This document shows positions 35,488-61,606 of a DNA stretch of 64,000 nt, piece by piece. The notes below the pieces were generated by a model. That model ran no database searches, was not told the origin of the DNA, and worked only from the letters and a program-made list of their open reading frames with translations. A program made the position numbers and the translations under genes. Numbering within the stretch: the stretch's first letter is position 1; every line of letters starts with the position of its first letter. The DNA is from a virus, in IMG/VR virus record IMGVR_UViG_3300024319_000003, positions 32,001-96,000 of that record; one strand, written 5' to 3'.

Positions 35488-35967
35488 ATGGTAACAACCC
35501 CAGGCTGGACATACAATTCAAAACTCATTACTGACATAAGCGAAATGCCAACAGGCTCTTATGGGTTTATTTACGAAACATTTCATAAACCTTCGGGTAA
35601 AAAGTACTTAGGTAAAAAAGTTCTATTCTTTGAACGTAATAAAAGACTAGGGAAGAGAGCTTTAGAGGCCTTAAGAGAAGAAAGAAAAGCAAAAGGAATT
35701 GGAGGAAGAACACCGTTAAAACAAAAAATAATAACAGAATCAGATTGGAAGACTTATTACGGATCACATAAAGATATTTTAAAGTACGTTAAAGAAGGTT
35801 CCCCAATGGACTTTGAAAGACGTATACTATGTTTTGTACCCAATAAGAAGTTACTTACATACTATGAATGTAAATACCTATTTATAAACGAAGTACTGGA
35901 GAACCAGGATGCATATATTAATGATAATATCCTAGGAAAATTCTACAGAAAAGACTTTACATTATGA
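35488..35967 (+). CDS. GIY-YIG family endonuclease (T4 endonuclease II-like)
   Basis: GFIY...KKYLGKK, ESDWKTYYGS, YYE, YINDNI. Confidence 0.75.
   Translation: MVTTPGWTYNSKLITDISEMPTGSYGFIYETFHKPSGKKYLGKKVLFFERNKRLGKRALEALREERKAKGIGGRTPLKQKIITESDWKTYYGSHKDILKYVKEGSPMDFERRILCFVPNKKLLTYYECKYLFINEVLENQDAYINDNILGKFYRKDFTL
35879..35886 (+). promoter_or_regulatory. putative late promoter inside endonuclease gene
   Basis: TATTTATA 77 nt before 35964. Confidence 0.5.
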
Positions 35968-36380
35968 AATTAAGAGATATTCTACTTAAAGAGGGTAATG
36001 AATCGTGCCCTGCTGCAACTCAAGATTTAATATTAAACACAAAAAATAGAGACTCAGCAATAAAAGCACCCCATATTCAATACGGTCCGTTAAATGTAAA
36101 CGAACCTGGTAATTACTGGAAAGAAATAGCAAAGTACTGGAATACAGAAGAAAAAGCAGCAAAAGGTACTAACTGTAGTAACTGCGTCGCTTTTGATATC
36201 TCCAAGAGGATGGATGAATGTATGCCTGGAGTTACATCTGATGAGGATGGAAGACTAGGTTACTGTTGGATGCATCATTTTAAATGTCATTCCGCAAGAA
36301 GCTGTAGAACTTGGGCTAAAGGAGGTCCAATTGAAAAAGATTCAATATCACAAGAGTGGCAAGAAAGAAATAAAAAGTAA
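35964..36380 (+). CDS. Cys-rich HiPIP-like protein, putative head cargo
   Basis: CSNCVAF...GYC....FKC...SCRTW; leader MKLRDILLKE. Confidence 0.55.
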   Translation: MKLRDILLKEGNESCPAATQDLILNTKNRDSAIKAPHIQYGPLNVNEPGNYWKEIAKYWNTEEKAAKGTNCSNCVAFDISKRMDECMPGVTSDEDGRLGYCWMHHFKCHSARSCRTWAKGGPIEKDSISQEWQERNKK

Positions 36381-36386
36381 TATAAT

Positions 36387-37556
36387 ATGATTAGATTAAC
36401 TGAAATAATAGGAAAACCATCACTTAAGTACCATATAGATAACAGTCTCTCTTTATATGAGAATGTCTACCGTTATTCTAGCGATAGCTTTATACAATTA
36501 TTTGCTGAAGCAAGAGACGCTTATAGAGACGGTAAAATTCAACTTAACGAAGAAGATTTAAAGTTAATAGAAACAACAGATATAGGGCTATATGGAGTAT
36601 ATGAAGGAATAAAAGTACCATTAGATTTACCTATGTTAGAAGAATCTAAATATGATAAGGAAGAAACTATTCAACAAACAATTGATAGATTAAAAGCGAG
36701 AATAGCCGACCCAAATGATGGAGGGAATGTGCCTTTTTTAACCCAAAAAATAAAAGATTTAGAAAAATCATTAGATGAATCATTTTCTCAAAAAGATTGG
36801 GATGTAAAATGGAAGTTGCCTAAAGACAATTTATTTAATGCAACTAAAACTATAAATGCAACTAATAATAGGTACAAAGCTATACGATCCTTACTAAAGG
36901 CAAAACCTACAGAATTAAAAGCCTTTGATGACACCGATAATCACCCAGCATACGATATGTCTTATGATGAGTTAATGAAATGGTTTAAAAACCTAAAAGA
37001 ACCAGTTAAAGAAGCTAAATCTATACCTGAGTATATTGTAACTAAAGACGATCACCGTAAATCAAAATTCCCTTTCCATAAACTAAGAAACAGTGAATTT
37101 AAAATTAAAATAGCTGGACAAGGTAGAGATCAGGACTACATGATTTTTTGGAAAGAAGGAGACATAGGATACTGGGAATGGGAAGCAGGTAATATGAAAA
37201 GACAGTTAAGAAGCGCTTTGCTGGCCATAGCTAAAAGAAAACTACCTATAAAAGGTCAATTAGATGAAGCAGAATACAAAGGTAAAGATGTACCTCTAAA
37301 TAAACCAAAACGTGGAGGTTCTAAAAAATTCTACGTATACACAAAGAATAAAAAAGGGAATGTTGTAAAAGTATCTTTCGGAGGTACAACAGGTTTAAAT
37401 GTTAAGATAGATGAACCTGGAGCAAGATCATCATTTGCTGCACGTCATAAATGTGCAACTAAAAAAGACAAAACAAAACCAGGATACTGGGCTTGTAATA
37501 TTGGACGTTATTGGAAATCATTAGGTGGAAAAAGAAACTTCTCAGGATATTGGTAG
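36387..37556 (+). CDS. mosaic multi-module protein, putative head cargo
   Basis: Modules separated by MLEE, LDE, VKE, LDE; C-terminal LNKP...KVSFG...FAARHKC...GYWAC domain. Confidence 0.6.
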   Translation: MIRLTEIIGKPSLKYHIDNSLSLYENVYRYSSDSFIQLFAEARDAYRDGKIQLNEEDLKLIETTDIGLYGVYEGIKVPLDLPMLEESKYDKEETIQQTIDRLKARIADPNDGGNVPFLTQKIKDLEKSLDESFSQKDWDVKWKLPKDNLFNATKTINATNNRYKAIRSLLKAKPTELKAFDDTDNHPAYDMSYDELMKWFKNLKEPVKEAKSIPEYIVTKDDHRKSKFPFHKLRNSEFKIKIAGQGRDQDYMIFWKEGDIGYWEWEAGNMKRQLRSALLAIAKRKLPIKGQLDEAEYKGKDVPLNKPKRGGSKKFYVYTKNKKGNVVKVSFGGTTGLNVKIDEPGARSSFAARHKCATKKDKTKPGYWACNIGRYWKSLGGKRNFSGYW

Positions 37557-37800
37557 ACCGTACTTAGATGACGGTGATATTAGATTCTTCAATCAAAACA
37601 CAGATGAAGATGAATTTGTTTGGCACAAAGACCGAGAGGATCGGTATGTTGTAGCAATGCATAAAACAGACTGGCAATTTCAATTTGATAATAACCTTCC
37701 CGTTTCTTTAGATGATAACAAGCTATTTATACCAAAGGAAGTGTACCACCGGCTAATAAAAGGCACAGGAGACTTAACCCTTAAAATAGAACGCAAATGA
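37525..37800 (+). CDS. cupin-like small protein
   Basis: WHKDREDR ... FIPKEVYHRLIKG. Confidence 0.65.
   Translation: MEKETSQDIGRPYLDDGDIRFFNQNTDEDEFVWHKDREDRYVVAMHKTDWQFQFDNNLPVSLDDNKLFIPKEVYHRLIKGTGDLTLKIERK
37724..37731 (+). promoter_or_regulatory. putative late promoter
   Basis: TATTTATA upstream of 37797. Confidence 0.5.
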
Positions 37801-38228
37801 AATTAACTAATATCATATTCGAAGGCTTTAGAGAAGACGCTTCAACTATAAACGGAAAAAAATACTCTGTTAACTGGCTAGGCACAGCTGATACTTTAGA
37901 AGATTTTAAAAAAGCAATAGATAGAATGCCTAGTACTATAAAATCTATAAGTATACCTACTAATACAACCATCTTTAAGACCAGCAAAGATACACAAACA
38001 ATTAAACCGGAAGGTTCTTGGAAAAGTGATGTTATCACAACAGTCGGTAAAGTAGTAAAAGCCCATATGGATAAAGGAGATGATTTAGAAGGTATAAGAA
38101 TTAACTCCTATTACGGAACTGGTCCTAAAGGATCTGACGACCATCCAATTTACATAAGTGTACTTACAAAACAAGCTCGTAAATTTGGAGATGATATGCA
38201 TTCCGGTAAACATGGTTCATTAGATTAA
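37797..38228 (+). CDS. hypothetical protein, putative head cargo
   Basis: Leader MKLTNIIFE. Confidence 0.6.
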   Translation: MKLTNIIFEGFREDASTINGKKYSVNWLGTADTLEDFKKAIDRMPSTIKSISIPTNTTIFKTSKDTQTIKPEGSWKSDVITTVGKVVKAHMDKGDDLEGIRINSYYGTGPKGSDDHPIYISVLTKQARKFGDDMHSGKHGSLD

Positions 38229-38233
38229 AAGAT

Positions 38234-38662
38234 ATGAGACTATCACACGTAATATTAGGAGAGATTCTTTACTACGATCCCGGGTTTGAAAAAGAAGTAG
38301 AGAAAGTAAAAGAACTTGGAGGGAAGTATCTAGGCTCAGGAGATTACGGCTCTGCATATCTTCTAAACGGTAGAGTTTATAAAGTAACAACTGATTCAAT
38401 AGAGTTAGAACATGCACATATACTTAAAGGTAAAAAAACAAATAACTTTGCTTTTATATACGATGTAGAAGAGATTAATGAAAAGTTAGGAATAATTCAA
38501 ATGGAAGTGCTAGGAGAATTTAAAGGAGATATTCCTGAAGAATGGATTGAAGCAACTGAAGCTGAAGCACAAAGGATGGGACTCGACCCAGAAGAACTAG
38601 ATATAAGACCATCAAATGTAATGGTAAATCAAAAAAATAAACTGAAATTAGTTGATATTTAG
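38234..38662 (+). CDS. minimal protein-kinase-like enzyme
   Basis: LGSGDYGSAY Gly loop, VYKVT Lys, helix-C Glu, QME hinge, DIRPSNVM catalytic loop, LVDI. Confidence 0.8.
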   Translation: MRLSHVILGEILYYDPGFEKEVEKVKELGGKYLGSGDYGSAYLLNGRVYKVTTDSIELEHAHILKGKKTNNFAFIYDVEEINEKLGIIQMEVLGEFKGDIPEEWIEATEAEAQRMGLDPEELDIRPSNVMVNQKNKLKLVDI

Positions 38663-38682
38663 AATTATTTTTCTTATATTAT
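38650..38682 (+). promoter_or_regulatory. early promoter
   Basis: AGTTG-N20-TATATTAT before primase. Confidence 0.75.
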
Positions 38683-38706
38683 AAGATAATAGTTACGGAC
38701 AACTAC

Positions 38707-40409: not shown

Positions 40410-40412
40410 TGT

Positions 40413-41249
40413 ATGAAAAAGTTATTATTTTTACTAGTATTATTAACAGGATGCTCTTCTTTACAGGTAAGCACCTTAAATCACGATCCTAACTATAGCA
40501 TACAAGGATCAGATGCAGAAATAATAGTAATAGATAATGAGTTTGAACTTCAACGACTATTAAGAACAGATTTTAATTTTAGATTTGACTTTGCTCAATA
40601 TGCGTTAAGTCAACCCATATCATTTGATTGGAATAATCGTATTCTAGGTAACAGGTACAATAGGTATAATCCATACTACGGGTTAGGTTATAGTCCCTAT
40701 TGGAACAGAACTCAAATGTGGAACGATTGGGCATGGGGTATCACACCTCATAGATGGTCACCATTTGGATACGACAGATGGGGGTATAATAACTACGGTT
40801 GGAATAACTACTACGGATGGCACAATTGGAACTATTATCCTAATTATAATAGAGGATGGAATGCAACATACATGTACGGTAGAAGAAGTGTTAATATAGT
40901 TCCTTCAGGTAGAAGATTAAGACAAACTACAAGAAGAACTCAAACAGTAGACGAGATTGCAGATATAATTAAACTAGAAGTAAGAAACCGAAGAACAAAT
41001 AACACGACAGATGATAAAATTATCAACACTAATACTAGAGGACAGATCCGCACCCAAAGCAATAATAATGGCGGGAGGAGCAGGATCAGGGAAAACGTAC
41101 CTACTCAACCAATTAGGACTAGACAGCCTAGTACAATTCAACCCAGACAAGTACGTGGAGGACAAAGACCACCCGTATTACAACAAACTAGGACCAGCAG
41201 CCAATCAAACGTCCAAAGACGCAATGGCAGCAGCAGAAGAAAAAACTAG
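40413..41249 (+). CDS. lipoprotein with W/Y/N/G-rich and Arg-rich low-complexity tail
   Basis: MKKLLFLLVLLTGC lipobox; overlaps next gene by 239 nt. Confidence 0.65.
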   Translation: MKKLLFLLVLLTGCSSLQVSTLNHDPNYSIQGSDAEIIVIDNEFELQRLLRTDFNFRFDFAQYALSQPISFDWNNRILGNRYNRYNPYYGLGYSPYWNRTQMWNDWAWGITPHRWSPFGYDRWGYNNYGWNNYYGWHNWNYYPNYNRGWNATYMYGRRSVNIVPSGRRLRQTTRRTQTVDEIADIIKLEVRNRRTNNTTDDKIINTNTRGQIRTQSNNNGGRSRIRENVPTQPIRTRQPSTIQPRQVRGGQRPPVLQQTRTSSQSNVQRRNGSSRRKN

Positions 41250-41952
41250 CTTTGTTTGGGATACTACTGCATCCGGAGCAGGCTTCCAAAAAAATCTAGA
41301 TAAATTACTTGCAACAGGCTACCAGGTCTATATGGTTATGGTGTATGCTCACCCTATGATTTCTTACGTTTCTAACTTTATGGCTAGGGAAAGAAATATT
41401 CCTGGCGATTCTGTATTTGCTACCTGGAGAAATGTGTATACTAAAATAGAAGACTTTAACAGACAGTTAAAAGGTAACTTATCTATCTTTGTAAGTGATA
41501 GAGGCGGTAAATATAAAAAAGAAGTTGAAGGATTTGATAAAGCTGCTAAAAGTGGCTTAAGTGGAGTAAAAGATTATTTAGAGAAATTTAATCAAGATAA
41601 TAATGTCGGCGGCTCTTCCTTCTTTGTACCAGTAGAGATGACACCTGAAGAAGAGCAACAATTTATAAAAGATGTTGGTAGTATAGATTGGGATAAAGAA
41701 AATAGATCAGAAGACAAAGCAATTAAAACTGCATTTCTAAAAGCTTACAGAAAGAACGGAGCAGGCCCAGGACAGGATAAGCTTAAAGCAGCAGTTCAAA
41801 AGTATAGAGACAGCAATATAAAAAGAAAAGGAAAAGCAGATGAAGTTCTAGATAATATTGTAGATATGATATACAATCCAACATTTCAAGAAAAATTAAA
41901 TCACTCCTCAGTAGGAGAAATAGACTCTAAAGTACAATCATTTTTAGCATGA
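41011..41952 (+). CDS. zeta-toxin-like P-loop kinase, putative head cargo
   Basis: MAGGAGSGKT, FNPDKY, VWDTT, N..RER; leader MIKLSTLILE. Confidence 0.8.
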   Translation: MIKLSTLILEDRSAPKAIIMAGGAGSGKTYLLNQLGLDSLVQFNPDKYVEDKDHPYYNKLGPAANQTSKDAMAAAEEKTSFVWDTTASGAGFQKNLDKLLATGYQVYMVMVYAHPMISYVSNFMARERNIPGDSVFATWRNVYTKIEDFNRQLKGNLSIFVSDRGGKYKKEVEGFDKAAKSGLSGVKDYLEKFNQDNNVGGSSFFVPVEMTPEEEQQFIKDVGSIDWDKENRSEDKAIKTAFLKAYRKNGAGPGQDKLKAAVQKYRDSNIKRKGKADEVLDNIVDMIYNPTFQEKLNHSSVGEIDSKVQSFLA

Positions 41953-43517: not shown

Positions 43518-43531
43518 AAATAACAGTAAAC

Positions 43532-43564
43532 AGTTGGTAGTTAGAAAAAAAATTCGTATATTAA
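43532..43564 (+). promoter_or_regulatory. early promoter
   Basis: AGTTG-N20-TATATTAA plus AAAGGTT-ATG. Confidence 0.8.
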
Positions 43565-43593
43565 GAAAGAATAGTATAAACTAAAAAAAGGTT

Positions 43594-44184
43594 ATGAATA
43601 CAAGTATAATAGATTTATTAGATGCACACCCACCAACAGTAGCAGAAAAAACATCAAAGTATAAGATATATTGCGATATGGACGGAGTATTAACAGACTT
43701 CGAAAAAAGATTCTTTGATAAAGTAAATGAGGTTGGTCCTGATCACTACCCACTTAAGGACATAAAAAAAGTAATTAAGCCAAAAGATTTTGAGGCAATA
43801 TTCGGCATGACTGAATTCTGGAAATTTATAGACCAAATAGTTGGTGTATCATTCTGGGTAGGAATGGACTGGATGCCAAGAGGAAAAGAACTCTGGAGCT
43901 TTATATCTAAATACAATCCATCGCTTCTTACTTCACCATCAAGAGATAACACATCCAGATTAGGTAAAAACCTCTGGGTTAAGAATCAACTTACTCCAAA
44001 ACCTAAAGTAATATTTGCATACTCAGCATATAAACAAAACTATGCTAACCCTAATGCTATACTCATTGATGATAAAAAGTCAAACATAGAAGAGTGGAGA
44101 GCAAAAGGCGGTATAGCGTTTAGAGTTAAAGGAGGAGACATAACAGAAGCACTAAACGGTCTTAAAGAGTTAGGATATGAGTAA
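43594..44184 (+). CDS. HAD-family 5'(3')-deoxyribonucleotidase
   Basis: IYCDMDGVLTDF, LTSP, K, ILIDD. Confidence 0.88.
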   Translation: MNTSIIDLLDAHPPTVAEKTSKYKIYCDMDGVLTDFEKRFFDKVNEVGPDHYPLKDIKKVIKPKDFEAIFGMTEFWKFIDQIVGVSFWVGMDWMPRGKELWSFISKYNPSLLTSPSRDNTSRLGKNLWVKNQLTPKPKVIFAYSAYKQNYANPNAILIDDKKSNIEEWRAKGGIAFRVKGGDITEALNGLKELGYE

Positions 44185-44752: not shown

Positions 44753-44756
44753 ACTA

Positions 44757-44764
44757 TATTTATA
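44757..44764 (+). promoter_or_regulatory. putative late promoter
   Basis: Intergenic TATTTATA. Confidence 0.6.
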
Positions 44765-44795
44765 AGATATATATACAAATTCTAGCATAGTTAAT

Positions 44796-45152
44796 ATGAC
44801 ACAAAAAGATTTACTTGAATCAGTACTTAAAGAATTAGTTCACATAAAAAAGCATATGCCTAACGGTGAACTAAAAATTATGCTGAAAGACGTTAAAGGA
44901 CTGAAAGATGATATGTCGGATCTCAAGTATACATTACTAAACCCAGAAGACGGTACTATAGTTAAAACCAATCAAAACTCAGCTTTCCGTAAAAGGATGG
45001 AAGATAATGAAAAAGATTTTTTCAATAAACTTCAAGAAATACAAGATTTAAAAAAATGGAAAGATAGTGTACAGAAAGCTCTTTGGATTATATTTACAGT
45101 TCTCGCTGGTGTAGTAATTAAACTATTATCAGAAGTAATACGTATACAGTAA
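44796..45152 (+). CDS. coiled-coil protein with C-terminal TM (possible lysis protein)
   Basis: ALWIIFTVLAGVVI after coiled coil; late promoter. Confidence 0.55.
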   Translation: MTQKDLLESVLKELVHIKKHMPNGELKIMLKDVKGLKDDMSDLKYTLLNPEDGTIVKTNQNSAFRKRMEDNEKDFFNKLQEIQDLKKWKDSVQKALWIIFTVLAGVVIKLLSEVIRIQ

Positions 45153-45832
45153 TGAAACAAAGTACAGTAAGAGATATAGTTAAAGAGTCATTAAGAGATT
45201 GGTTTAAAAAAGAAAAATGGGTAAGAATATCATCTTCTGGTAACATAGCAGGAGACTGTGGTACTTCAAAGAATAAAAAAAATCCGGATAGGTGCTTGCC
45301 GAAATCAAAAGCACAGAGTTTAACAAAAGGCCAAAGAGCCGCTACTGCAGCAAAGAAAAAGAAAGCAGGAAGTAAAGGAAAGACAGTCGTGAAGAATACA
45401 AAAAAAGCAAAGGTAACAAAAGAAGATTTAACAAACCTAGTAGTAGGGATGGTAAACGAAATAAAAAACCCTCAAAACTTAATTAGCTTTGGATACGATT
45501 TAGACGCTATTGAGGACGTTGTTAACCACTTAAGAAGTAAATACAAACCTGGCGTAGATTATGAACTCCATATAGGAAGAGGAGACGATTTACCTAACGC
45601 TGTAACTATTTTGAATCCAAAACTTCATAGTGATTACGATTTGAACGATATGTTAAATTATGCACAAAGCGATGAAGATAGATACGATGCTTATACTGAC
45701 GGTAATTTAAACGAGAAGAAAGACGATAGATGTACTAGATTAGCAAAACAGAAATACGACACATGGCCATCAGCTTATGCCTCAGGAGCAGTGGTAAGAT
45801 GTAGACGAGGGGATATATGGAAAGAGAAATAA
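45152..45832 (+). CDS. three-module basic protein (DUF5872-like parts), putative head cargo
   Basis: LRDWF..EKWV...CG...CLP; WPSAYASGAVVRCR; modules after VKE, VNE, LNE. Confidence 0.6.
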   Translation: MKQSTVRDIVKESLRDWFKKEKWVRISSSGNIAGDCGTSKNKKNPDRCLPKSKAQSLTKGQRAATAAKKKKAGSKGKTVVKNTKKAKVTKEDLTNLVVGMVNEIKNPQNLISFGYDLDAIEDVVNHLRSKYKPGVDYELHIGRGDDLPNAVTILNPKLHSDYDLNDMLNYAQSDEDRYDAYTDGNLNEKKDDRCTRLAKQKYDTWPSAYASGAVVRCRRGDIWKEK

Positions 45833-45845
45833 CAGTAATATTAAA

Positions 45846-46043: not shown

Positions 46044-46048
46044 CTAAC

Positions 46049-46249
46049 ATGAATAGGAACGATTTAAAAGATGTAATACTTGAGGTGCTATATGAAGGTC
46101 CACACGATCCGGTAAAACCGGGTATATTAAAAAAGAGGATTGGAAAACTATCTTGTTCAAAAGTACGTAAAGAAAAAAGTAAATTAAAAGATAAAGGAAC
46201 ACATTTTGCAAAAGCATTACAGAGGTACTTAAACTACCACTGTCAGTAA
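46049..46249 (+). CDS. small basic protein, putative head cargo
   Basis: MNRNDLKDVILEVLYE leader. Confidence 0.6.
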   Translation: MNRNDLKDVILEVLYEGPHDPVKPGILKKRIGKLSCSKVRKEKSKLKDKGTHFAKALQRYLNYHCQ

Positions 46250-46277
46250 TACAGAGATTTAATAAAAAGAATCTATT

Positions 46278-46285
46278 TATTTATA
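46278..46285 (+). promoter_or_regulatory. putative late promoter
   Basis: TATTTATTTATA upstream of 46312. Confidence 0.6.
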
Positions 46286-46311
46286 TAGCTATAAAATTAA
46301 AAAACATTAAC

Positions 46312-48510: not shown

Positions 48511-50979
48511 ATGCATAAATTAGAAAAACTAATACTAGAAAGCTATGCTGAAGTTTTAAGAGAGGACAAAAAAGTGCTTCGCTTAGACGACTTAACTCCT
48601 GTAATGAGGAAAGCACTAGAAAAGAGATACGGTAAATCGGTAGATCCTGAACAGGATTTTGTTAGTGCAAACTTAGAGACATACTACTTTACTCATAAAA
48701 TTAATAAAGAAACAAACTCGGTTGATCACAAAGTATATGATCTCCCTTCTTTTCAAAGCCTATATTTCGGATACTCAGATATAATAGATGATGTAAGACA
48801 GTTAATGAACAGTGCCGATGTTAGAAGTGATAAAGCTGCAAGAGAGTTATTTGAACTGATCAAATCTAATTTTAGACAGATACAAAAATACCTCAGAACA
48901 GAAAGACCAGATCAATATGAACTTATGAAATCAACTAGGTCTTTAGAGGAGAACATATCAGCTCTAAAGGAATATAGGTTATCAATAGGGAGTAAAGAGG
49001 TAGCTAGAATAAATAAAGTAGGCCTAGACCCCGAAGACTGGACAGTAACTTTTGTAGACGGTACAGAAGAACCTTACATGAACCACTTAAGAGAAGTAAC
49101 TGATATGAATGACCCGGTTATGGTAAAGATAAGGCAAGCTAAGATGCATTCAGATAAAATGAAAAAATTAGATGCTTATTCAAAATCCCCTGAAGGTAGA
49201 GCTGCTGTAAGAACACAAGCTAGTGCAGAAAGAAAAGAACAAAAAGCTAGAGAGATAGTTCGTAAGTTAAAAATCAAAAGAGCACAAGTAGAAAGAGAAA
49301 TGGAAAACGATCCAGGTACCGAACCTCAAGGTGGTCCAGTATCAGATATGTACGGAGATCAATTAAATAAAATTGACAATGCTATTGAAAAAGCAGCAGG
49401 CATATACAATAAGAGAATGACCTACGACCAAGCAGTTGGTAAAGTTACTGAGATATTTGCTGATAGTACGTTTATTGATAAGCATAGAGATAGCGTAGTT
49501 GCTCATATAGAAGAGTTACTAGATGATATGGGAACATCAGAAGTTGCAATGGAATACCTTGGATGGTCTGAGGAAGAAGCAGAAGATGCTGACCACACTG
49601 TAAGAGCAGATGCAGCTAATAAGATTGCTAACGATCCAGCATTAGCTTCAGAGTTCCTAGATAAAGACGATATTGAAAAGATAAAAGCAGCTAACCTAAG
49701 TGAAGGTGAAGGAGATGATCATCACTACATTAAAGTAAAATTACACGATTATAAGAAAGCTATGGCTATCTTAGATCAAAACGTAGATCCAACTTATGTT
49801 AAGATGGAGGTTGTTGACAATGACGGAAACGGTAATGTTATTATCTACTTTATATTTAAACATGAAGCCGGTTTCGACGACATGTATGATGACTCAGAAA
49901 ACCCAGATTCAGAATTTTATCAAGAACCAGACGAAGATCCACAAGCATTCGTTTACGATGTAGTAATGGACTTAGGAGCTAACGATATAACTGTAGTAGA
50001 TTCTTCCACAGAGATGGATGAAATATTAAAGGAAGAAGAAAACAGCGACTCAGGAAAGCTAAATAAAATACAAACTTTTGGAGACCTACAGAAATTTATA
50101 AAACTTACTAAAACTAAAATAGTAGCAAAAAAAGTAGGTGGAGCACTAGATGCAGCAATAGGTTTTATACCTGGGATAGGAAACGTAAAAACAGGTATAG
50201 ATGTTATTAGAGCTTTAGCTAAAAAACAAGATGGTAAAACAACCAATACGTTTTTGGATAAAATGGATGTTGATGATAAAGCATCTGCAATAGTAGACGA
50301 TAAAGTTGAAGCTAACTTTATTAACTACATGCATAAAAGAATAGAAGATCAAGATGCTAATACAAAGTTACCTAGTAACTTTAATATGAACAGTTACTTT
50401 AATGACTTCTTATCAGCTGAATACGATAAGAGAACTATTGACGGAATCAATGAAGAGATAGGATCAGAAACAATTTTAGAAGATGCTACGGATATAATGT
50501 TAGAAAAATTTCCTACACTAAAAGCAGTGTTAATAAGACTTCAAACAGAAGACTTTAAAGAATTTGTTAACAAGATTGATTGGATATCACCGAGACCAAC
50601 GGAATTTAGAATTAACTTAACCAATGGACAGGATTACATTTTGAAGTGGACAGGTAAAGGCTTTGAAGCTCAGATACTGGGTAAAAGATACTTCTTAAAT
50701 AAGATAAATGAATTTCAACAAGCATTGGATAAGTTAGCAATTTTATATAAGGAAGGTCCAATGGGAGAACCAGAAGAACCAGCAGAACCAGCCCCAGAAA
50801 CAGATAGTGGATCATCAAGCGGAAGTGGCGGAGATTTTCCTGGAGAAGAAGGAGGAGGAGATTCCGGAGAAGATACCCCAGATGGAGATGATACAGCAGA
50901 TGCAGGAGAAGAAGAAGGAGCTGATTTAACAGATGAACCTGTTGATTTTGAAGAACCAGCAGAAGAACCAGAAGCATAA
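48511..50979 (+). CDS. mosaic polyprotein with acidic tail, putative head-internal
   Basis: Leader MHKLEKLILE; internal LRE/LKE/VTE/LSE/INE/ILE boundaries. Confidence 0.6.
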   Translation: MHKLEKLILESYAEVLREDKKVLRLDDLTPVMRKALEKRYGKSVDPEQDFVSANLETYYFTHKINKETNSVDHKVYDLPSFQSLYFGYSDIIDDVRQLMNSADVRSDKAARELFELIKSNFRQIQKYLRTERPDQYELMKSTRSLEENISALKEYRLSIGSKEVARINKVGLDPEDWTVTFVDGTEEPYMNHLREVTDMNDPVMVKIRQAKMHSDKMKKLDAYSKSPEGRAAVRTQASAERKEQKAREIVRKLKIKRAQVEREMENDPGTEPQGGPVSDMYGDQLNKIDNAIEKAAGIYNKRMTYDQAVGKVTEIFADSTFIDKHRDSVVAHIEELLDDMGTSEVAMEYLGWSEEEAEDADHTVRADAANKIANDPALASEFLDKDDIEKIKAANLSEGEGDDHHYIKVKLHDYKKAMAILDQNVDPTYVKMEVVDNDGNGNVIIYFIFKHEAGFDDMYDDSENPDSEFYQEPDEDPQAFVYDVVMDLGANDITVVDSSTEMDEILKEEENSDSGKLNKIQTFGDLQKFIKLTKTKIVAKKVGGALDAAIGFIPGIGNVKTGIDVIRALAKKQDGKTTNTFLDKMDVDDKASAIVDDKVEANFINYMHKRIEDQDANTKLPSNFNMNSYFNDFLSAEYDKRTIDGINEEIGSETILEDATDIMLEKFPTLKAVLIRLQTEDFKEFVNKIDWISPRPTEFRINLTNGQDYILKWTGKGFEAQILGKRYFLNKINEFQQALDKLAILYKEGPMGEPEEPAEPAPETDSGSSSGSGGDFPGEEGGGDSGEDTPDGDDTADAGEEEGADLTDEPVDFEEPAEEPEA

Positions 50980-51008
50980 TAAAAAAATAAAAAAATAAAA
51001 CAAATACA

Positions 51009-51371
51009 ATGGACAATTTTGACTTAAGAAAATTTTTAGCTGAAAATAAAAAAACAGTTATTGAAAACCAAGATCATAGTGATGAAGAAGCGTTAGATCT
51101 AGTACCGGACCTTGATAAAGGAGGTAAAAATTATAGCGATAACGGGTACGAATCTTACAAACTGCAAGTTAAAGCAGGCTACCAGATCCCTGAACCTTAC
51201 TCACTGAAGAACTATAAAAATGCTGCCGAGTTAAATAAAGAACAAGCTAAAGACGAAGGACATAGAATAGGTAAATACGTTGTTGAACTTGAAGGTCAAG
51301 AATTAGAACAATTTGTTAACGACTGGATGAAAGCTTGGAATGAAGAAATCTCAGGAGGAGAAAAAGCATAG
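51009..51371 (+). CDS. hypothetical protein, putative head cargo
   Basis: Leader MDNFDLRKFLAE...VIE. Confidence 0.6.
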   Translation: MDNFDLRKFLAENKKTVIENQDHSDEEALDLVPDLDKGGKNYSDNGYESYKLQVKAGYQIPEPYSLKNYKNAAELNKEQAKDEGHRIGKYVVELEGQELEQFVNDWMKAWNEEISGGEKA

Positions 51372-51390
51372 TAATAGTAACTAGCATAGA

Positions 51391-52791
51391 ATGAATCTTA
51401 TAGATAAAGTTTTATTAGAATGGTCCTATAAGACCAAAAAAGGGTATCCTGACATTAACAGTCAAGAGGATATGGATTTGTTTGAATCTATATTCGGTTT
51501 TAACCTTAATGAAACACCTCTTACACCAGCTGAATTAGATAAAGTAAATTCTAATACAAAAGAAAATAGAATTGATATACTAATAAGAAAAATTAAGAAC
51601 AAAGAACCTCTAGCTATAGATGATTCAGAAGATACTTTTTTAGTATATGATCCAAGAGGTGAAAAAGTAAGTGAATTAGAAAAATGGGATGTATCTAAAA
51701 AGGCAGTGACTCTTTTTAACAGAGAAGGAAATTCTATTACAACATCTAAATTAGCAAAATCAGCAGATTTTGGAGGTGGAGCAGGATCTGGAGCAGGATC
51801 AGCACAAACAGATATACAAGAATCAAGTATGTGTGCAGTTTTAGCTTTATACCAGAAACAAGGCAAATTAGAAGAGAAAGATCTTACCTCAGAAAATATA
51901 AAAAGTATTTCCAAAGATATAGAGACTACATCAAGCGTAGAGGAAATAGTAGATTATATTACTAATTCTCCCGGCTGGGCTTCTACATTTGTTAACACAG
52001 CTTCTTTATTATCTGGCTATTTAGATAAAGGGTACGAATTCCATCGAGGTTCATCATTTGTAGATTCTATATACGAAGTGTGGAAAAAAATAAAGAAAAA
52101 AAATAAATGGAGTATCAAAGATGATAAATGGAATCCATCGGATATTTGGGCAGTAAAACCAACAGGAAAAAATATTAAATTAGATAGTGAAACATTAGAA
52201 GAATATAACAACCAACTGTTAGATTTATTCAATAGTAGAACTTTAATAGGTATTTCGCTAAAGAAACTTGGTAAATCTCCAACTGTAAAAACAGTAAATA
52301 AAGAAAGAGTTTCAGAAATAGAAGTTTTAGATAGTATAATTTCTTCAGGCGGTTCTAAAGATGCTTATGTAAACACTAAATCAGGAAAAATATTACAACT
52401 TAGAACAACCGGTGGTAATTCGTTTCAAGGAGAATTGAAAGGTAAAACTGCCGCTCAAGGAAAAATAGGTGGAGGTGTACTCAAAACGTTTTTAGATAAA
52501 CAAGGATTAGGACCTATACCAACTCAGAAAGAATCTGCTAAGTTAGCTATAGAGTACACACCCTCATTTGTTAACGAATTACTCGAATTATGTAATGAAT
52601 ACTTCAGTATAACTGAAGAAGAATTAAATTCAAAAACTACTGATTGGTTAAATTCAAAGTACCAAGCATTAAAAGTAGCAAAGGTTTTAAAAACAGGTAG
52701 CAAGGATAAAGTAGAAGCAGCATTAACAGACATAGTAAATTATGCTGGTTCAAGAAGCTCTATTTCTGCTGTGTACCTAAAAGTAATGTAG
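51391..52791 (+). CDS. putative PD-(D/E)XK-like nuclease, putative head cargo
   Basis: QES..C, KWNPSDIW, LIGISLKK; leader ending LNE. Confidence 0.55.
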   Translation: MNLIDKVLLEWSYKTKKGYPDINSQEDMDLFESIFGFNLNETPLTPAELDKVNSNTKENRIDILIRKIKNKEPLAIDDSEDTFLVYDPRGEKVSELEKWDVSKKAVTLFNREGNSITTSKLAKSADFGGGAGSGAGSAQTDIQESSMCAVLALYQKQGKLEEKDLTSENIKSISKDIETTSSVEEIVDYITNSPGWASTFVNTASLLSGYLDKGYEFHRGSSFVDSIYEVWKKIKKKNKWSIKDDKWNPSDIWAVKPTGKNIKLDSETLEEYNNQLLDLFNSRTLIGISLKKLGKSPTVKTVNKERVSEIEVLDSIISSGGSKDAYVNTKSGKILQLRTTGGNSFQGELKGKTAAQGKIGGGVLKTFLDKQGLGPIPTQKESAKLAIEYTPSFVNELLELCNEYFSITEEELNSKTTDWLNSKYQALKVAKVLKTGSKDKVEAALTDIVNYAGSRSSISAVYLKVM

Positions 52792-56326: not shown

Positions 56327-57181
56327 ATGAAGATAAAACATTCAAAGTTTAAAAATACCGGCCTGATTTACGAACTATTAGTAAAGCAGATAGCAGCAGA
56401 CACTTTGTCAAAAAGTGAATCACCAGCTTTAGGTATACTCAAAGAGTTTTTTGCAGGTAGCTCTACACTAGCCAAAGAATTGAAACTTTATGAGTATATA
56501 CTTAAAAATACTAATTTAGTTGAAGTAAAAGCTGAAACAGTTTTATCAACTATCACTGAAATTTCTAGAAAGCTAAATCAAAAGGCACTAAAAGAACAGA
56601 AGTATAGATTAATCTCAGAAGTTAAGAAACATTATAATATTGAAGAGTTCTTCGGTATACAAGTTAGAGATTATAAAGCACTAGCAGCTATGTACTGTTT
56701 ATTAGAAGCACAAAATTCTAGCACATTAGTTGCACCAGAATTTTTAATTAATAATAAACTTACTATTCTAGAGCACCTAACTTCTTCTAAAGTAGATAAA
56801 GATGCAGTAAAAGATACACTTATTGAAGAGTATGCTAAATACGATAAGGATTTAAGACTACTTACATATAAAATTCTTTTAGAGAAATTTAATTCCAACT
56901 ATAAAGATTTACTACCAGAACAGAAATACATACTTAAAGAGTTTATAACCTCAGTTGACTCAACTACTAGACTTAGAAACATAGTTAATGAAGAGATAGT
57001 AAAAATTAAAGAGCTTATTAGTGAACTATCTTCTAAAGTAAAGGACGAAGTAGTAAGGATAAAATTAGAGGAAGTAGTTAAATCAATAAAGACTTTAACT
57101 AAGACAGAAAAAATTACAGATAACCACCTTGTTAATCTTATGCAATATTATGATTTGGTAAATGAGATGAAATCAGTATGA
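56327..57181 (+). CDS. conserved head-module hypothetical protein
   Basis: KIKHSKFKNTGLIYELL; between portal and protease. Confidence 0.7.
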   Translation: MKIKHSKFKNTGLIYELLVKQIAADTLSKSESPALGILKEFFAGSSTLAKELKLYEYILKNTNLVEVKAETVLSTITEISRKLNQKALKEQKYRLISEVKKHYNIEEFFGIQVRDYKALAAMYCLLEAQNSSTLVAPEFLINNKLTILEHLTSSKVDKDAVKDTLIEEYAKYDKDLRLLTYKILLEKFNSNYKDLLPEQKYILKEFITSVDSTTRLRNIVNEEIVKIKELISELSSKVKDEVVRIKLEEVVKSIKTLTKTEKITDNHLVNLMQYYDLVNEMKSV

Positions 57182-57408
57182 AAAAAAGCACAATAAGAAA
57201 AGCTATAAAAGAAGTAATAGAAGAACTTAGCACCTCAGCAGCAGTAGGAGGGTATCAAACTCCATTTGCCTTTAGTAAAAAGAAAGGTGATAATAGAGCA
57301 ACAAAGCAAGCTGAAAAGCTAGGTTTTAAAAAAGTTAAAAATAAAAAAAGACCTTATAACACTAAAATGTTTGATTACTTAGATGAAAACAATACAAGAA
57401 AAATATAA
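57178..57408 (+). CDS. small head-module protein
   Basis: IKEVIEE then STSAAVGGYQTPFAF. Confidence 0.65.
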   Translation: MKKSTIRKAIKEVIEELSTSAAVGGYQTPFAFSKKKGDNRATKQAEKLGFKKVKNKKRPYNTKMFDYLDENNTRKI

Positions 57409-59836
57409 CGCAGTTGTAGAGGGTACATTCTCTAAACAACAATTCCTTAAAGATGCTAAGAGAGAGCTATCTCAATTCCTATCTCCCTTTAACGGATTCC
57501 CAGACACAGTATCAATCCTTAAAAGTAAAGGGATTCTTTTTGAAGCTAAAAAAGAAGCTTCATTAGAGTACGAATGCCCAGTATCTCAATACTCGGTAGA
57601 GGACCTAACAAGAGGGGTAGACTTTGAATTAGAAAAAGCTGGAGTAGATTCGGCTGCTACTGTAACCAAAGAGGATAAAGATAAAGCAGAGAAAATTGCA
57701 ATCAAAAACCTTGAAAAAGATAGAATGCACTACCTTAACATACTAGCAGGAGAATCAGCAAAAGTTGATAAGCACGATAAAATGGTAGAACCAACTGATA
57801 AGAATAAAGTAGATACTTTTAACGGCATGAAAAAAGCTGATTTAAAAGAAAACTATACCAAAGAAAAGTTACTGAAAAAATTAGGTGACGCAGACGATGC
57901 TCGTATTCAAACCGGTAACGGAAAAGAATATATAATTTATAATCCTAATTCTAATAATGATGATAATGCTGCAATGTGGCATGACGATACTGTATTTGCT
58001 GTTGACCTAGATGGACAAGAAGAAGAAATAGATTATAGAGATATAGGATTAGTAATGGTAGAAGATATCAAAGAAAGTAATCAAGAAGAATCTATTGCAA
58101 ATTTTATTATAAAGTACTACTCTAACCCCAACACAGGAAAAAGTCTAATAGATGATGATATTATAGGTGACTTTTTCGCAACACACCCTGAATCAAGAGA
58201 TCAAGAACCTCAAGATGCATTAGATAATTTTCAAGAGTTCTTATCAGTAAATTACGAAATGCCTGGGGACTACATGCAAGAAGCAGAAGATTTAACACTA
58301 GAGCCTGAAGATACTGACAATCCAGATGAAACTTTAATAGCTATAGGTAGAGGATATTTAGAGGGTTTTAATAGACCTCATTCTCTAACTAACGGCGATT
58401 TAGAAATTTTAGGGAAAAAAGTAGTAGATAACCTATATAAAGGAGATCTTGAAGCAGCCAAAACACAATTTGTAGCAGAAGCTATGACTGATGATGAAAT
58501 GAAAAAGATTGCTAAGTACGGTAAAGATACAGATATGAAAGCAATTGATAAAATTTATAAATTAGGAGACAAATTTTCAACAGACTTTGACTACGACGGA
58601 ATGCTAAAAGCAGGGCTTAAACTTAAAATAAGTACTCCTTTAGATAAAATGCAAAAACTTTATGACTCTTTTGAAGATGTAAATTACCATAGAGAAAACG
58701 GACATTTAGGTAATGCTATAGACTACATACAAGATGGAGATAAAAAAGGAGCTTTAGATCACTTAAAGATGTTTAGACAAGCAGTACGTAAAACTTTAGG
58801 AGAAATGGACGAAGGAGCTGATAAGGTAAGAAAAGTAGTAGCAGAGGATAGTGATATACAGGAAAGTCGAGGAGCATTTGATTTATGCGTTCAAGGAATT
58901 CAAGATATCGCCACAGATGGAGATGTTAGCGAGAAAGATGCTGCTATGGAAATGATGATAGCAATTGCTGATAAGTATGATTTTAATCTAGCAGGATTAG
59001 AGTCTCAACTGTTCCATGGAGATGATTCAATTAACGAAGGTAGAAGAAGAAAGACTAAAGGAGGTAAAGTAGTAACTGAAAACGACTACGAAACTGGAGG
59101 ATATGTTGAGAGTATGGGACCTTTATTTGATAAAGGAGTTAATATGCTAATCAAGGCTTGGGAAGAATGGAAAATGGGTCCAATGACAGAACCAGGAATG
59201 GTAGAGTTTGCTAAAAAAGATGTATTGACATACCTAGAAACTCAATTTATGGTAGAAAATCTTGAAGAAGCTAAAGGTAAAGATCACGATGGAGATGGAG
59301 ATGTAGATGGAGATGATTATATGGCTAGTAAAGATGCTGCTATTAAAAAAGCAATGGGCAAGGAGAAGGTAGTTAAAGAAAATATTAAATCTATAATTGT
59401 TAAGGTATTAGAAGAAGGGGTAGTAAATGAAGCTGCAACAAATGCATTAGCAGATTTCTCTGAAACATACGGAGGATATGAAGGAATGAAACAATCAATT
59501 ATAAATCTTCAAGATGTTGTAACAGATATTGAAGCATACTACGATAAAACAAGAAGTAAGATTCAGAAAGTATATGACACTTTAGGTGATATTAGGAATG
59601 AAGAAGGTCTAAAAGTAGGAGGATTTTTAGCTCCTGCAATAGAGCAAGCATTTAATAAGGACTTAAGACCAGCAATTAAAGGTGGATTCACAAAAGGACT
59701 AACACAACCTAAAGTAAAAATGATATCACAGAAAGATATTGAAACACAAAATCCTCTAGGAGAAGTAGAAAAAGAAACGGTATACTCAAGACCTACAGTT
59801 AATGGAACTTTACAAGAAAATAAAAAAAGAAAATAA
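57383..59836 (+). CDS. mosaic polyprotein, putative prohead core/internal protein
   Basis: About 10 blocks bounded by [ILVM]xE; DHDGDGDVDGDD Ca-binding-like loop. Confidence 0.6.
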   Translation: MKTIQEKYNAVVEGTFSKQQFLKDAKRELSQFLSPFNGFPDTVSILKSKGILFEAKKEASLEYECPVSQYSVEDLTRGVDFELEKAGVDSAATVTKEDKDKAEKIAIKNLEKDRMHYLNILAGESAKVDKHDKMVEPTDKNKVDTFNGMKKADLKENYTKEKLLKKLGDADDARIQTGNGKEYIIYNPNSNNDDNAAMWHDDTVFAVDLDGQEEEIDYRDIGLVMVEDIKESNQEESIANFIIKYYSNPNTGKSLIDDDIIGDFFATHPESRDQEPQDALDNFQEFLSVNYEMPGDYMQEAEDLTLEPEDTDNPDETLIAIGRGYLEGFNRPHSLTNGDLEILGKKVVDNLYKGDLEAAKTQFVAEAMTDDEMKKIAKYGKDTDMKAIDKIYKLGDKFSTDFDYDGMLKAGLKLKISTPLDKMQKLYDSFEDVNYHRENGHLGNAIDYIQDGDKKGALDHLKMFRQAVRKTLGEMDEGADKVRKVVAEDSDIQESRGAFDLCVQGIQDIATDGDVSEKDAAMEMMIAIADKYDFNLAGLESQLFHGDDSINEGRRRKTKGGKVVTENDYETGGYVESMGPLFDKGVNMLIKAWEEWKMGPMTEPGMVEFAKKDVLTYLETQFMVENLEEAKGKDHDGDGDVDGDDYMASKDAAIKKAMGKEKVVKENIKSIIVKVLEEGVVNEAATNALADFSETYGGYEGMKQSIINLQDVVTDIEAYYDKTRSKIQKVYDTLGDIRNEEGLKVGGFLAPAIEQAFNKDLRPAIKGGFTKGLTQPKVKMISQKDIETQNPLGEVEKETVYSRPTVNGTLQENKKRK

Positions 59837-60462
59837 TGAAAGATAACTTTGACATATATAGTTGGAATCAAAAAAGACGTTTAACAGAAGCACGCAAGCT
59901 AGAAGAAGCACAAGCAGTTAACCTTCCTACAATACCCGACTCAGTACTTAATAACTTTGCAAACCAGATAAAAAACCCACAAACAATGGCATCTGCAGTC
60001 ATTGCTCTGGTAAATAAGTTAGCGGAAAAAGAAAACGAAAATATTCTTAAAAATCCTAAAATAGCAAGAGCAATTGACTTACTAAAAGATATTGATCCTG
60101 CAGATGGAGAAGTTGAAGAAGCTTTAAAAATGACAGCATCAACAGAAACTCTTAGAAAAATAATATTTAAATTATTAGATGACGGACAGATCCAACCAGA
60201 AACAGCTGATGATATACTAAATGCTATTTCAAACTCACCATCAGATAATATATATGAAGCTAGAGTTGATAGAGAAGTAGCGGAACGTATCGAAGGTTTA
60301 TTAAACCAACAATTAAAAGCTAAATTCTTAAACTATTTTCAAGAACTTTACACTGATTTAGTACAGGACGATTTATTTTACGCAGAAGATGTTGTTAACC
60401 ATTTAAATAACGAGATGCATAAAATCATAAAAGTAGCATCTAAAGATGATTTAAATCTTTAA
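59836..60462 (+). CDS. three-module head-internal protein
   Basis: LTE/LEE, VEE, IYE boundaries. Confidence 0.55.
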   Translation: MKDNFDIYSWNQKRRLTEARKLEEAQAVNLPTIPDSVLNNFANQIKNPQTMASAVIALVNKLAEKENENILKNPKIARAIDLLKDIDPADGEVEEALKMTASTETLRKIIFKLLDDGQIQPETADDILNAISNSPSDNIYEARVDREVAERIEGLLNQQLKAKFLNYFQELYTDLVQDDLFYAEDVVNHLNNEMHKIIKVASKDDLNL

Positions 60463-60482
60463 TCTGAAAAAACAAAAATAAC

Positions 60483-61061
60483 ATGGCACAATTACTTATA
60501 GAAGTTACATCATTTAATCCTATTCTAAGAGAATCCAAAGAAAGACCTGGAGTATACGAAGTAGAAGGAGTTATGCAAAGAGCAACTGCAAAGAATCAAA
60601 ATGGTAGAACTTATAGTAAAGCTATTTTAGAAAGAGAAACTAAGAAGTATATCTCTGAATTTGTTTCAAACGGTAATGCATTTGGAGAATTAGATCACCC
60701 TGAGTCTCCCATTGTCTCTCTAAAGAACGCTTCACACATAGTAAAAGACTTATGGTGGAAGGGAAACGACCTTATGGGACGTGTGGAACTACTAAATACA
60801 CCTTCAGGTAATATTGTAAAAGAAATAATTAAAGCAGGACACACTATAGGGATATCATCTAGAGGAACAGGCTCAGTACAACAAACAAATGAAGGAGCAT
60901 TAGAAGTGCAAGATGATTTTGAATTGGTATGTTGGGATTTTGTATCTAATCCTTCTACTCATGGAGCATTTATGAATCCTATTTCACTTAATGAAGGAAA
61001 AGGTAAGGCATCTAAGTTTATTAAGCTGGATGCAATCTTAAACGATATACTAAGAGCTTAA
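60483..61061 (+). CDS. prohead protease (gp21-like)
   Basis: KNQNGRTY, FGELDHP, SHIV, LNTPSG, GISSRGTGS, WDFVSNPS. Confidence 0.95.
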   Translation: MAQLLIEVTSFNPILRESKERPGVYEVEGVMQRATAKNQNGRTYSKAILERETKKYISEFVSNGNAFGELDHPESPIVSLKNASHIVKDLWWKGNDLMGRVELLNTPSGNIVKEIIKAGHTIGISSRGTGSVQQTNEGALEVQDDFELVCWDFVSNPSTHGAFMNPISLNEGKGKASKFIKLDAILNDILRA

Positions 61062-61606
61062 TGAAGTTAGCAAGTATTATTCTAGAAGCAGAAGGTAATG
61101 CTGAACCAGGAATGGGGCAAATGGCAGACCAAATAGCAAAAGCAATAGAAAAAGAGCTAAGACCGCATAAAGGTGAATTAGACGGAGATACAAACGAAGT
61201 CGCTGGAGTAGTAGGTATAATAGGATATATACTTCTATCTAACACAGTAGCACATATGCTTGCTAAGATTGCTAAATCGCTATCTAAGAAATATAATAAA
61301 CCCGGAATACTCAAAAGTGCTGAATGGTGGGAAGACTTCACACATAAGAACGAAGCAGCGTTTATGGCACCTATCAAACGTATAGTGGGCATGTTTACTA
61401 AAGATGAAAAGAAGAAATCAGCAGCAACTAAAATAGTATACGGTATCTTAATTTTCTTAATGGCAGGTCAAGCAGGAGGAGGAGCTCTACAAGCTCTTAA
61501 AACTACTAGATGGGCAGCAGCAGCAGGTCTTTCCGCAAAAGCATTAATTAAAGGCGTGGAAGTAACCTCTCTACTTAAACAGGCAGCATCAGATCTAGTA
61601 TCTTAA
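61061..61606 (+). CDS. hydrophobic protein with cargo-type leader
   Basis: MKLASIILE; two hydrophobic segments. Confidence 0.6.
   Translation: MKLASIILEAEGNAEPGMGQMADQIAKAIEKELRPHKGELDGDTNEVAGVVGIIGYILLSNTVAHMLAKIAKSLSKKYNKPGILKSAEWWEDFTHKNEAAFMAPIKRIVGMFTKDEKKKSAATKIVYGILIFLMAGQAGGGALQALKTTRWAAAAGLSAKALIKGVEVTSLLKQAASDLVS

Follow-up and report, generated by a model that had tools for sequence, protein, structure and literature searches.

The window analysed here, a stretch of 64,000 nucleotides corresponding to bases 32001-96000 of a phage genome of 167,696 bases (IMG/VR record IMGVR_UViG_3300024319_000003), carries between positions 35964 and 61606 a cluster of genes whose otherwise unrelated products begin with short N-terminal leaders of 8-13 residues ending in hydrophobic-x-Glu. 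We confirmed that this cluster is real: the leaders exist, are enriched over background, are conserved at defined positions in related phages and are portable from one protein body to another, and the genome encodes a prohead protease of the T4 gp21 family. We consider it likely that most of the leaders are capsid-targeting and cleavage tags of the T4 type on an enlarged and fast-changing cargo. Judged from sequence, approximately 15-20 otherwise unrelated proteins of this large T4-like phage of marine Flavobacteria appear to bear such a tag. This suggests, short of proof, that the phage, along with its DNA, injects a protein set that is unusually large and changes fast.

The G+C content of the window is 33%, and its genes lie nearly all on the + strand. 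Early-type genes come first and are followed by baseplate and fibre genes (approximately 16.5-35.5 kb), a mixed block (36-52.8 kb), the large terminase gene (52794), the portal gene (54408) and the head module. The closest public record is Flavobacterium phage vB_FspM_immuto of the genus Immutovirus (immuto in the following). As relatives we used 95 related metagenomic loci obtained in two IMG/VR searches, which contain 1,130 distinct open reading frames (ORFs). The clade is frequent in marine and estuarine viromes, with 390 IMG/VR relatives of one gene.

Enrichment and clustering of the leaders

All ORFs were called mechanically on the + strand. A loose pattern, defined as any I/L/V-x-E within the first 20 residues, matched 59 of 204 ORFs and is uninformative by itself. 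Because it was too permissive, we adopted a strict pattern that requires Glu at residue 6-14 (position P1), I/L/V at P3 and a hydrophobic residue at P4 or P2. Fifteen of the 28 ORFs within 35964-61606 matched this pattern; over the stretch 35964-66705 in window numbering it was 18 of 34, compared with 14 of 160 (approximately 9%) elsewhere (Fisher p 3e-8). The background of the strict pattern, taken from internal windows of the same proteins, was 6.5-8.5%. With a looser version, 19 of the 34 regional ORFs matched, compared with 12-15% of internal windows initiated by Met. Given that the region had been picked post hoc, a scan statistic was applied, in which the best run of 34 consecutive ORFs held 18 matches, a number equalled in none of 100,000 permutations (p below 1e-5). 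The first-pass annotation had claimed that unrelated ORFs in this range share leaders of this kind and had named enrichment over background as a check; both hold. The same analysis of immuto yielded matches in 17 of 34 ORFs of the syntenic stretch (p 2e-5).

The leaders are not a general property of the genome. Only three of 41 ORFs of the tail, baseplate and fibre blocks matched the strict pattern, as did one of ten genes behind the early-type ATAAAGGTT leader, in agreement with the earlier statement that early-promoter genes and most baseplate and fibre genes lack the tag. As a control, the strict pattern was applied to 150 kb of T4, where it recovered ipII, ipIII, gp68, gp21, gp22, gp24, Inh and Alt. 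A position matrix trained on eight T4 leaders, too few for the purpose, gave only a modest separation of the region from the remainder (p approximately 0.001); conservation combined with the simple pattern told more.

Conservation of the leaders in related phages

In the relatives, most tagged genes hold the Glu and the hydrophobic P3 constant, while the other leader positions, the length of the leader and the residues behind the Glu vary. The site is retained in 80-100% of the distinct N-termini in 12 of 17 families. After clustering of all ORFs by their bodies, the tag proved to be all-or-none by family: 35 families were tagged to at least 60% and 66 to at most 20%, with a single merged cluster in between. 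The 204 distinct leaders comprise 6-14 residues, mainly 9, 10 or 12, and all of them have I, L or V at P3 and Glu at P1. Hydrophobic residues occur at a frequency of 0.70 at P7 and 0.73 at P4, with P3 as a further peak, and of approximately 0.2 at P5, P6 and P8; P7 lies outside the search pattern.

Insertions or deletions of one residue respect the hydrophobic-x-Glu rule, as seen from leaders that end in the manner of -IILE or -IILNE and from the family of an 817-residue head-module protein, where the leader length is 13 or 14. Thirteen different codons are used at P3 and both Glu codons at P1, which argues that the constraint acts on the protein. Several leader sub-types coexist, namely the 9-residue MKLxxIILE, the 12-residue MKKSxLxxIIKE, an NFD-type and a two-helix module of 41 residues; MHKLEKLILE and NFD-type leaders are found on proteins of widely differing length. 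With three to four hydrophobic residues broken up by Lys, Ser, Asp or Glu, the leaders differ from Sec and lipoprotein signals, which have an unbroken hydrophobic core of approximately 10 residues or more before a signal-peptidase site or lipobox. A true signal peptide of this genome, that of the ORF at 40413, looks unlike them.

Prohead protease and head module

The following features of the head module are relevant to the tags.

54408: T4-type portal (Pfam Portal_T4, E 2e-69)
56327..57181, +: probable prohead core protein without short leader, just after the portal; 20 hydrophobic-x-Glu sites, 8.4 expected (p 4e-4)
57178..57408, +: small basic head-module protein of 76 residues with 12-residue leader; I/V at P3 and Glu at P1 kept in 9 of 9 distinct N-termini of relatives
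57383..59836, +: head-module protein of 817 residues with 13-residue leader, its start resembling T4 MKTYQE; leaders of 13 or 14 residues ending in hydrophobic-x-Glu in relatives
59836..60462, +: weak leader candidate; N-terminus related to the NFD-type leader, Glu at residue 18 not conserved
60483..61061, +: prohead protease of the T4 gp21 family, N-terminus MAQLLIE (Pfam Peptidase_S77, E 6.5e-36)
61061..61606, +: protein of 181 residues after the protease with 9-residue MKLxxIILE-type leader, present in 4 of 5 distinct relatives
61790..62824, +: acidic scaffold-like protein (isoelectric point (pI) 4.1) between the protease and capsid genes, leader ending in AIAE at residue 13
62860..64000, +: major capsid protein, extending beyond the end of the window (Pfam Gp23, E 8e-38, from residue 75)

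The protease shares 40% identity with T4 gp21 over 156 residues and has the GELxHP and SSRG motifs around the catalytic His and Ser. Its own start, MAQLLIE, is the counterpart of LIE-9 in T4. The capsid protein has a propeptide-like stretch of approximately 60-74 residues before the Gp23 domain, with candidate sites at residues 8, 34 and 59, the first of which is retained in the immuto orthologue. The proteins at 56327 and 61790 (24 hydrophobic-x-Glu sites, 14.4 expected) are the two densest of the genome in this motif and both belong to the head module, a density in line with core proteins that become fragmented. The protein at 56327 matched no known family. The leader pattern of 61790 is identical in immuto.

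Behind its leader, the small protein at 57178 would have a pI of 9.9, and the remaining leader positions vary among relatives. Neither a family nor a PDB or Atlas match was found for the 817-residue protein, and no family match for the protein at 61061. The gene at 59836 had been listed as an example of the leader by the first-pass annotation and has to be downgraded, as its counterparts in L016, one of the related loci, and in immuto have a similar NFD(I/V)xxW start that lacks the Glu.

Correspondence with the capsid targeting sequence of T4

The capsid targeting sequence (CTS) of T4 was reportedly described by Mullaney and Black in 1996. It is present on the internal proteins IPI, IPII, IPIII and Alt and is removed by the prohead protease gp21 (PMC9026906, PMC3012670). 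In IPIII, targeting depends on residues 4 and 7 (P7 and P4) and processing on residues 8 and 10 (P3 and P1); the 10-residue tag alone suffices to load foreign proteins, and Asp at P1 prevents processing while targeting is unaffected (PMC9026906).

The leaders described here resemble the CTS in being N-terminal tags of approximately ten residues with Glu at P1, I or L at P3 and hydrophobic residues at P7 and P4, placed on unrelated bodies. A protease of the gp21 family is present in both phages, and in both the motif is also found on the capsid protein, the scaffold or scaffold-like protein and the protease. The two systems differ in the number of genes concerned, with approximately 15-20 tagged genes per genome here and roughly 8-10 gp21 substrates in T4, and in the coexistence of several leader sub-types, the recognisable enzymes among the bodies and the Flavobacterium-type host of a system known so far from its sequence.

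Because the leaders match the T4 targeting and processing positions, a gp21-type protease is present and the bodies are exchangeable, a capsid cargo is the interpretation that fits best. According to this model, the tagged genes would be transcribed late, alongside the head genes. The short amphipathic leader, with its hydrophobic P7, P4 and P3, would dock the protein on the scaffolding core during prohead formation. The gp21-type serine protease would then cut after the Glu of hydrophobic-x-Glu, so that the leader comes off, the core proteins are fragmented and the capsid protein is trimmed. The freed bodies would remain in the head and exit with the DNA at infection. A tag that is short and self-sufficient would allow new bodies to be swapped in behind it, which would account for the hypervariability of the slots and for the large number of unrelated bodies. 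The first-pass annotation had already read the leaders as capsid-targeting sequences with a head-protease site. The position profile, the S77 protease and the portability speak for this reading; from them we infer that the proteins dock, are cut, stay in the head and are ejected, and thus that they are packaged and injected.

Tagged genes upstream of the terminase

The mixed block upstream of the terminase contains the following leader genes and candidates.

35964..36380, +: Cys-containing protein of 138 residues with 10-residue leader, site in 9 of 13 distinct N-termini
36387..37556, +: not a conserved leader; residue 6 is E, D, N or Q over 41 distinct N-termini, with 3 pattern matches among 51 family members
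37797..38228, +: protein of 143 residues with 9-residue leader, in a hypervariable slot
38234..38662, +: protein of 142 residues with 10-residue leader; site kept in 11 of 11 distinct N-termini, including a variant with the Glu moved by one residue
39627..40409, +: PD-(D/E)XK exonuclease (phrog_298, E 8e-42; Pfam PDDEXK_1) with leader-like N-terminus, a moderate case
41011..41952, +: P-loop kinase of the polynucleotide-kinase / zeta-toxin / AvrRxo1 class with 10-residue leader (Pfam Zeta_toxin, E 4e-12, from residue 11)
43594..44184, +: NT5C-like nucleotidase with N-terminal extension of approximately 20 residues (weak Pfam NT5C match, E 0.006, profile position 4 at residue 25)
44796..45152, +: protein of 118 residues with sites at residues 8 and 13, a moderate case; site in 28 of 28 distinct N-termini
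45152..45832, +: basic protein of 226 residues with ambiguous leader; Glu invariant, P3 Thr in about half of the relatives
46049..46249, +: basic protein of 66 residues with 12-residue leader; site kept in 11 of 11 distinct N-termini, leader length 10-14
48511..50979, +: protein of 822 residues with leader MHKLEKLILE; same leader on proteins of 338-397 residues in relatives
51009..51371, +: protein of 120 residues with leader MDNFDLRKFLAE; same leader on proteins of 99-386 residues in relatives, four times in immuto
51391..52791, +: protein with a two-helix N-terminal module of 41 residues ending in L-x-E, followed by an exchangeable body

The kinase at 41011 is the clearest case of such conservation. 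Its Glu10 is invariant in 22 sequences of the family down to 29% identity; residues 11-14 have no consensus and form a hypervariable linker of 4-5 residues, and P15 and K16, where the domain begins, are again invariant. In the AlphaFold2 model (predicted local distance difference test score 88.6), residues 1-9 are the sole segment below 50, and the fold neighbours of the model are polynucleotide kinase, zeta/PezT toxins and AvrRxo1. Of 12 distinct N-termini of the exonuclease, 10 have Glu10 in place or displaced by one residue; it is absent in 3 of 81 sequences, and the immuto site survives a one-residue indel. P1 of the nucleotidase is Asp in the window phage and Glu in most relatives (DLLE-A). 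A weak phrog_937 match spans residues 3-112 of the protein at 44796, so that its N-terminus may belong to the fold.

The exchange of bodies is most apparent at 37797. In 80 relatives, the slot between the homologue of the gene at 37525 and the primase gene holds 107 distinct proteins that are non-homologous to that of the window phage, and 76 of them begin with an MKLSxIILE-type leader. Beside the variable tagged genes before the primase, many relatives (L041, L048, L050 and others) have an untagged, very basic ORF of 45 residues that starts with MAKGLTLGNY and contains KKKRPGVHAKSK; no ORF with this N-terminus is among those called in the window. In immuto, the leader of the 46049 homologue heads a protein of 252 residues, and divergent relatives of the 48511 leader still end in hydrophobic-x-Glu. 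The large proteins at 46312 (731 residues) and 48511 (822 residues) were also considered as polyproteins with protease-cut joints, a possibility that found no support, as they contain 14 and 13 sites where 11.7 and 15.7 are expected after correction for composition.

Of the examples given in the first-pass annotation, the genes at 35964, 37797, 38234, 41011, 46049, 48511, 51009, 51391, 57178, 57383 and 61061, the protease and the capsid gene are supported by the relatives. The gene at 36387 has to be withdrawn because of its variable residue 6, and 45152 stays ambiguous, its invariant Glu being offset by the frequent Thr at P3. For 51391, the site is conserved as proposed, but it terminates a 41-residue module instead of a 10-residue leader. 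Altogether, two or three of the 16 leaders listed there fail. Four leader-like genes were added to the list, namely the exonuclease, the nucleotidase, 44796 and the scaffold-like 61790.

Most tagged bodies, including the two proteins of approximately 820 residues and the bodies behind the 41-residue module, matched nothing in Pfam, PHROGs, a PDB sequence search or the ESM Atlas. The bodies that can be named are the kinase, the exonuclease and, weakly, the nucleotidase, and to this extent the enzymatic diversity that had been proposed for the cargo is borne out. A kinase at 38234 depends on a weak protein-kinase-like match (phrog_15752, E 2e-4), and the designation of 35964 as Fe-S-like found no support, as no family match was obtained in Pfam or PHROGs.

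The 41-residue module

The module of the protein at 51391 precedes at least six unrelated C-terminal bodies, and the phylogenies of module and body disagree. A profile search with the module found 646 protein clusters; among the top 150, 146 had the module at the N-terminus. Of 62 full-length representatives, 59 have a hydrophobic-x-Glu site at residue 38-52, compared with 21% of control windows, and the bodies of these representatives form 12 BLAST clusters. At the junction (an invariant L/I-x-E), P3 and P1 are constant, P4 and P2 vary, and the unrelated bodies begin exactly there. In the AlphaFold2 model of 51391, helices at residues 3-14 and 25-35 are followed by coil at the junction. The comparison of synonymous with non-synonymous changes in the module was uninformative because the relatives are too close.

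Alternative explanations

Several observations weigh against the capsid-cargo interpretation. The strict pattern also matches approximately 10% of unrelated T4 ORFs, and at this per-gene rate of false positives no single gene can be called by pattern alone. The specificity of the protease for Glu is assumed from its 40% identity to gp21. No sequence similarity was detected between 61790 and T4 gp22, so that a scaffold role of the former is deduced from position and composition, nor between the small head proteins (57178) and T4 gp67. Compared with the rest of the genome, the tagged proteins show no excess basicity, unlike the internal proteins of T4. The exonuclease and the nucleotidase look like cytoplasmic enzymes, and the NMNAT-like neighbour of the kinase has no tag. 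In the literature, no virion proteome of immuto was found.

Some of these points would be explained if only the proteins of the head module (57178-62860) were substrates of the protease, whereas the upstream tagged proteins (35964-52791) were cytoplasmic and their N-terminal helix served another purpose or was a relic of recombination at conserved gene starts. This agrees with the mixture of tagged genes with a primase gene, the NMNAT-like gene and a homing endonuclease gene in the upstream block, with the ordinary cytoplasmic type of the exonuclease and nucleotidase, with the loss of the exonuclease Glu in a few relatives and with Asp at P1 of the window nucleotidase. However, the upstream leaders have the same P7/P4/P3/P1 profile as those of the head module, the Glu of the kinase family is invariant even at 29% identity, and the genes of the hypervariable slot carry the tag. 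Given that the T4 tag alone is sufficient to load foreign proteins (PMC9026906), a matching tag that is made late should be loaded whatever its body. We therefore regard a restriction to the head module as unlikely.

We consider it very improbable that the leaders are recognised by a partner other than the capsid, such as a modifying enzyme, a chaperone or an export route. The genomic association of the tag was examined for the head module and the S77 protease: the motif is present on the capsid protein, the scaffold-like protein and the protease and is densest in the head-core proteins, and the leaders fit the cutting rule of gp21 and the targeting positions of T4. As read from the sequences, they are too short and too charged for Sec or lipoprotein signals. 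A by-product of composition or of a translation-start preference in an AT-rich genome, without signal function, is hardly credible: MK- starts and helices rich in I, L, K and E are indeed common here, and the loose pattern matches 59 of 204 ORFs in this genome and the strict one approximately 10% of T4 ORFs, but the scan statistic (p below 1e-5) was replicated in immuto, the regional ORFs exceed the internal Met-initiated windows (19 of 34 compared with 12-15%), the late structural tail genes have only 3 matches among 41 ORFs, families are either tagged or not, and Glu and P3 survive indels and many codons.

Relation to known systems

The T4 mechanism has been known since 1996, and the variation of internal proteins behind a conserved tag in T-even phages is also known. 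Their hypervariable internal-protein loci encode diverse small basic proteins with common CTS-like sequences and have been read as the result of an arms race with host defences, IPI of T4 being able to block a restriction enzyme (PMC9026906, PMC3012670). A constant tag and rapidly swapped bodies at fixed genomic slots are common to these loci and to the cluster described here. In contrast to the T-even loci, at least 35 tagged families occur in the 30-kb stretch across approximately 95 relatives, more than 600 clusters lie behind one module, and the bodies are not preferentially basic.

In the jumbo phages phiKZ, 201phi2-1 and SPN3US, ejection or inner-body proteins are processed by prohead proteases (PMC5694885, PMC10052503). 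Similar to the cluster, these phages have many head-internal proteins, some of them enzymes, with N-terminal propeptides cut after Glu and multiple sites each. Their propeptides are mostly longer than 100 residues with S, A or G at P3 (PMC5694885), whereas leaders of 8-13 (up to 41) residues with I, L or V at P3 are found here. The cargo had been called far larger at first pass, which is fair in comparison with T4 but not with jumbo phages, which have approximately 50 head proteins. We found no paper on such tags in Flavobacteria phages or marine T4-like phages. What appears to be new is that the mechanism is used in this clade of Flavobacteria phages, that so many genes per genome are tagged, that several tag types occur side by side, among them the 41-residue module on hundreds of protein clusters, and that the cargo includes enzymes.

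It is possible, and we put it forward tentatively, that this abundant clade of marine T4-like Flavobacteria phages possesses a plug-in effector system, in which any protein placed behind a short tag or the module would be loaded, released by the protease and injected. The pan-repertoire of such a system might comprise dozens to hundreds of rapidly exchanged injected proteins, including a kinase of the zeta/AvrRxo1 class, a nuclease and a nucleotidase, and its logic would be comparable to that of bacterial polymorphic effector systems. Proteins of polymorphic toxin and effector systems have a conserved domain for trafficking at the N-terminus, combined with C-terminal domains that can be swapped. 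By analogy, both would have a constant N-terminal address, a defined junction, unrelated and exchangeable C-termini and a discordant phylogeny; in the phage the address would be the capsid instead of a secretion system, and a protease site lies at the junction.

If the tags act as in T4, the proteins that a phage injects with its DNA could be listed from its genome. Injected proteins would be the first to meet the host defences; annotation hardly reveals them, since most tagged bodies have no known family. The clade is common and its relative immuto is in culture, with Flavobacterium sp. LMO8 as host, which makes the prediction directly testable. The short tags and the 41-residue module could furthermore serve as handles to load chosen proteins into such capsids, as has been done with T4.

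Promoter-like motifs, isolated leader genes and neighbouring genes

Two of the leader genes that lie outside the cluster are the following.

4293..4829, +: isolated candidate leader gene among early-type genes, with TATTTATA 15 nt upstream
18612..19043, +: isolated leader gene within the baseplate block, with TATTTATA 3 nt upstream of the start; leader retained in immuto

No homologue of the gene at 4293 was found in immuto. The motif TATTTATA has 45 occurrences on the + strand of the genome, 27 of which lie 3-42 nt before a start codon; examples are at window positions 16191, 18601, 30975, 40373, 44757, 46278, 54372 and 56302. Among the genes behind it are those of the portal, sheath, tube and baseplate and several members of the tagged block; the isolated tagged genes at 1383, 4293 and 18612 are preceded by it as well. 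Because it precedes portal, sheath, tube and baseplate genes, TATTTATA is probably a late promoter element. Its presence before tagged genes as well as portal and tail genes fits a late co-expression of the two, which it does not prove.

The start of the kinase gene at 41011 is overlapped in another frame, by 239 nt, by an ORF of 278 residues (40413-41249), the one with the lipoprotein-type signal peptide. In 38 relatives that have both genes, the overlap is mostly 206-245 nt (exactly 239 nt in 20) and almost none in five, and one contig has the two counterparts fused into a single ORF of 520 residues. The two may be real overlapping genes or the product of a frameshift. On its other side the kinase is adjoined by a protein of 522 residues (41949-43517) with a nucleotidyltransferase motif of the HxGH type near the N-terminus and no Pfam match; its fused counterpart in immuto is annotated as NadR/NMNAT. 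As the NAD kinase AvrRxo1 is among the fold neighbours of the adjoining kinase, the two may be connected with NAD metabolism.

Positions 35488-35967, where the fibre genes give way to the tagged block, encode a SegE-type GIY-YIG homing endonuclease (Pfam E 1e-23), the immuto counterpart of which is annotated as 'NAD synthetase'. Across the genome, ATAAAGGTT directly abuts the ATG of nine genes in early-type regions and stands 5 nt before a tenth, with window positions 1809, 2710, 4908, 6653, 10875, 11540 and 13298. As a translation-start or leader element, it is a fixed feature of another gene class.

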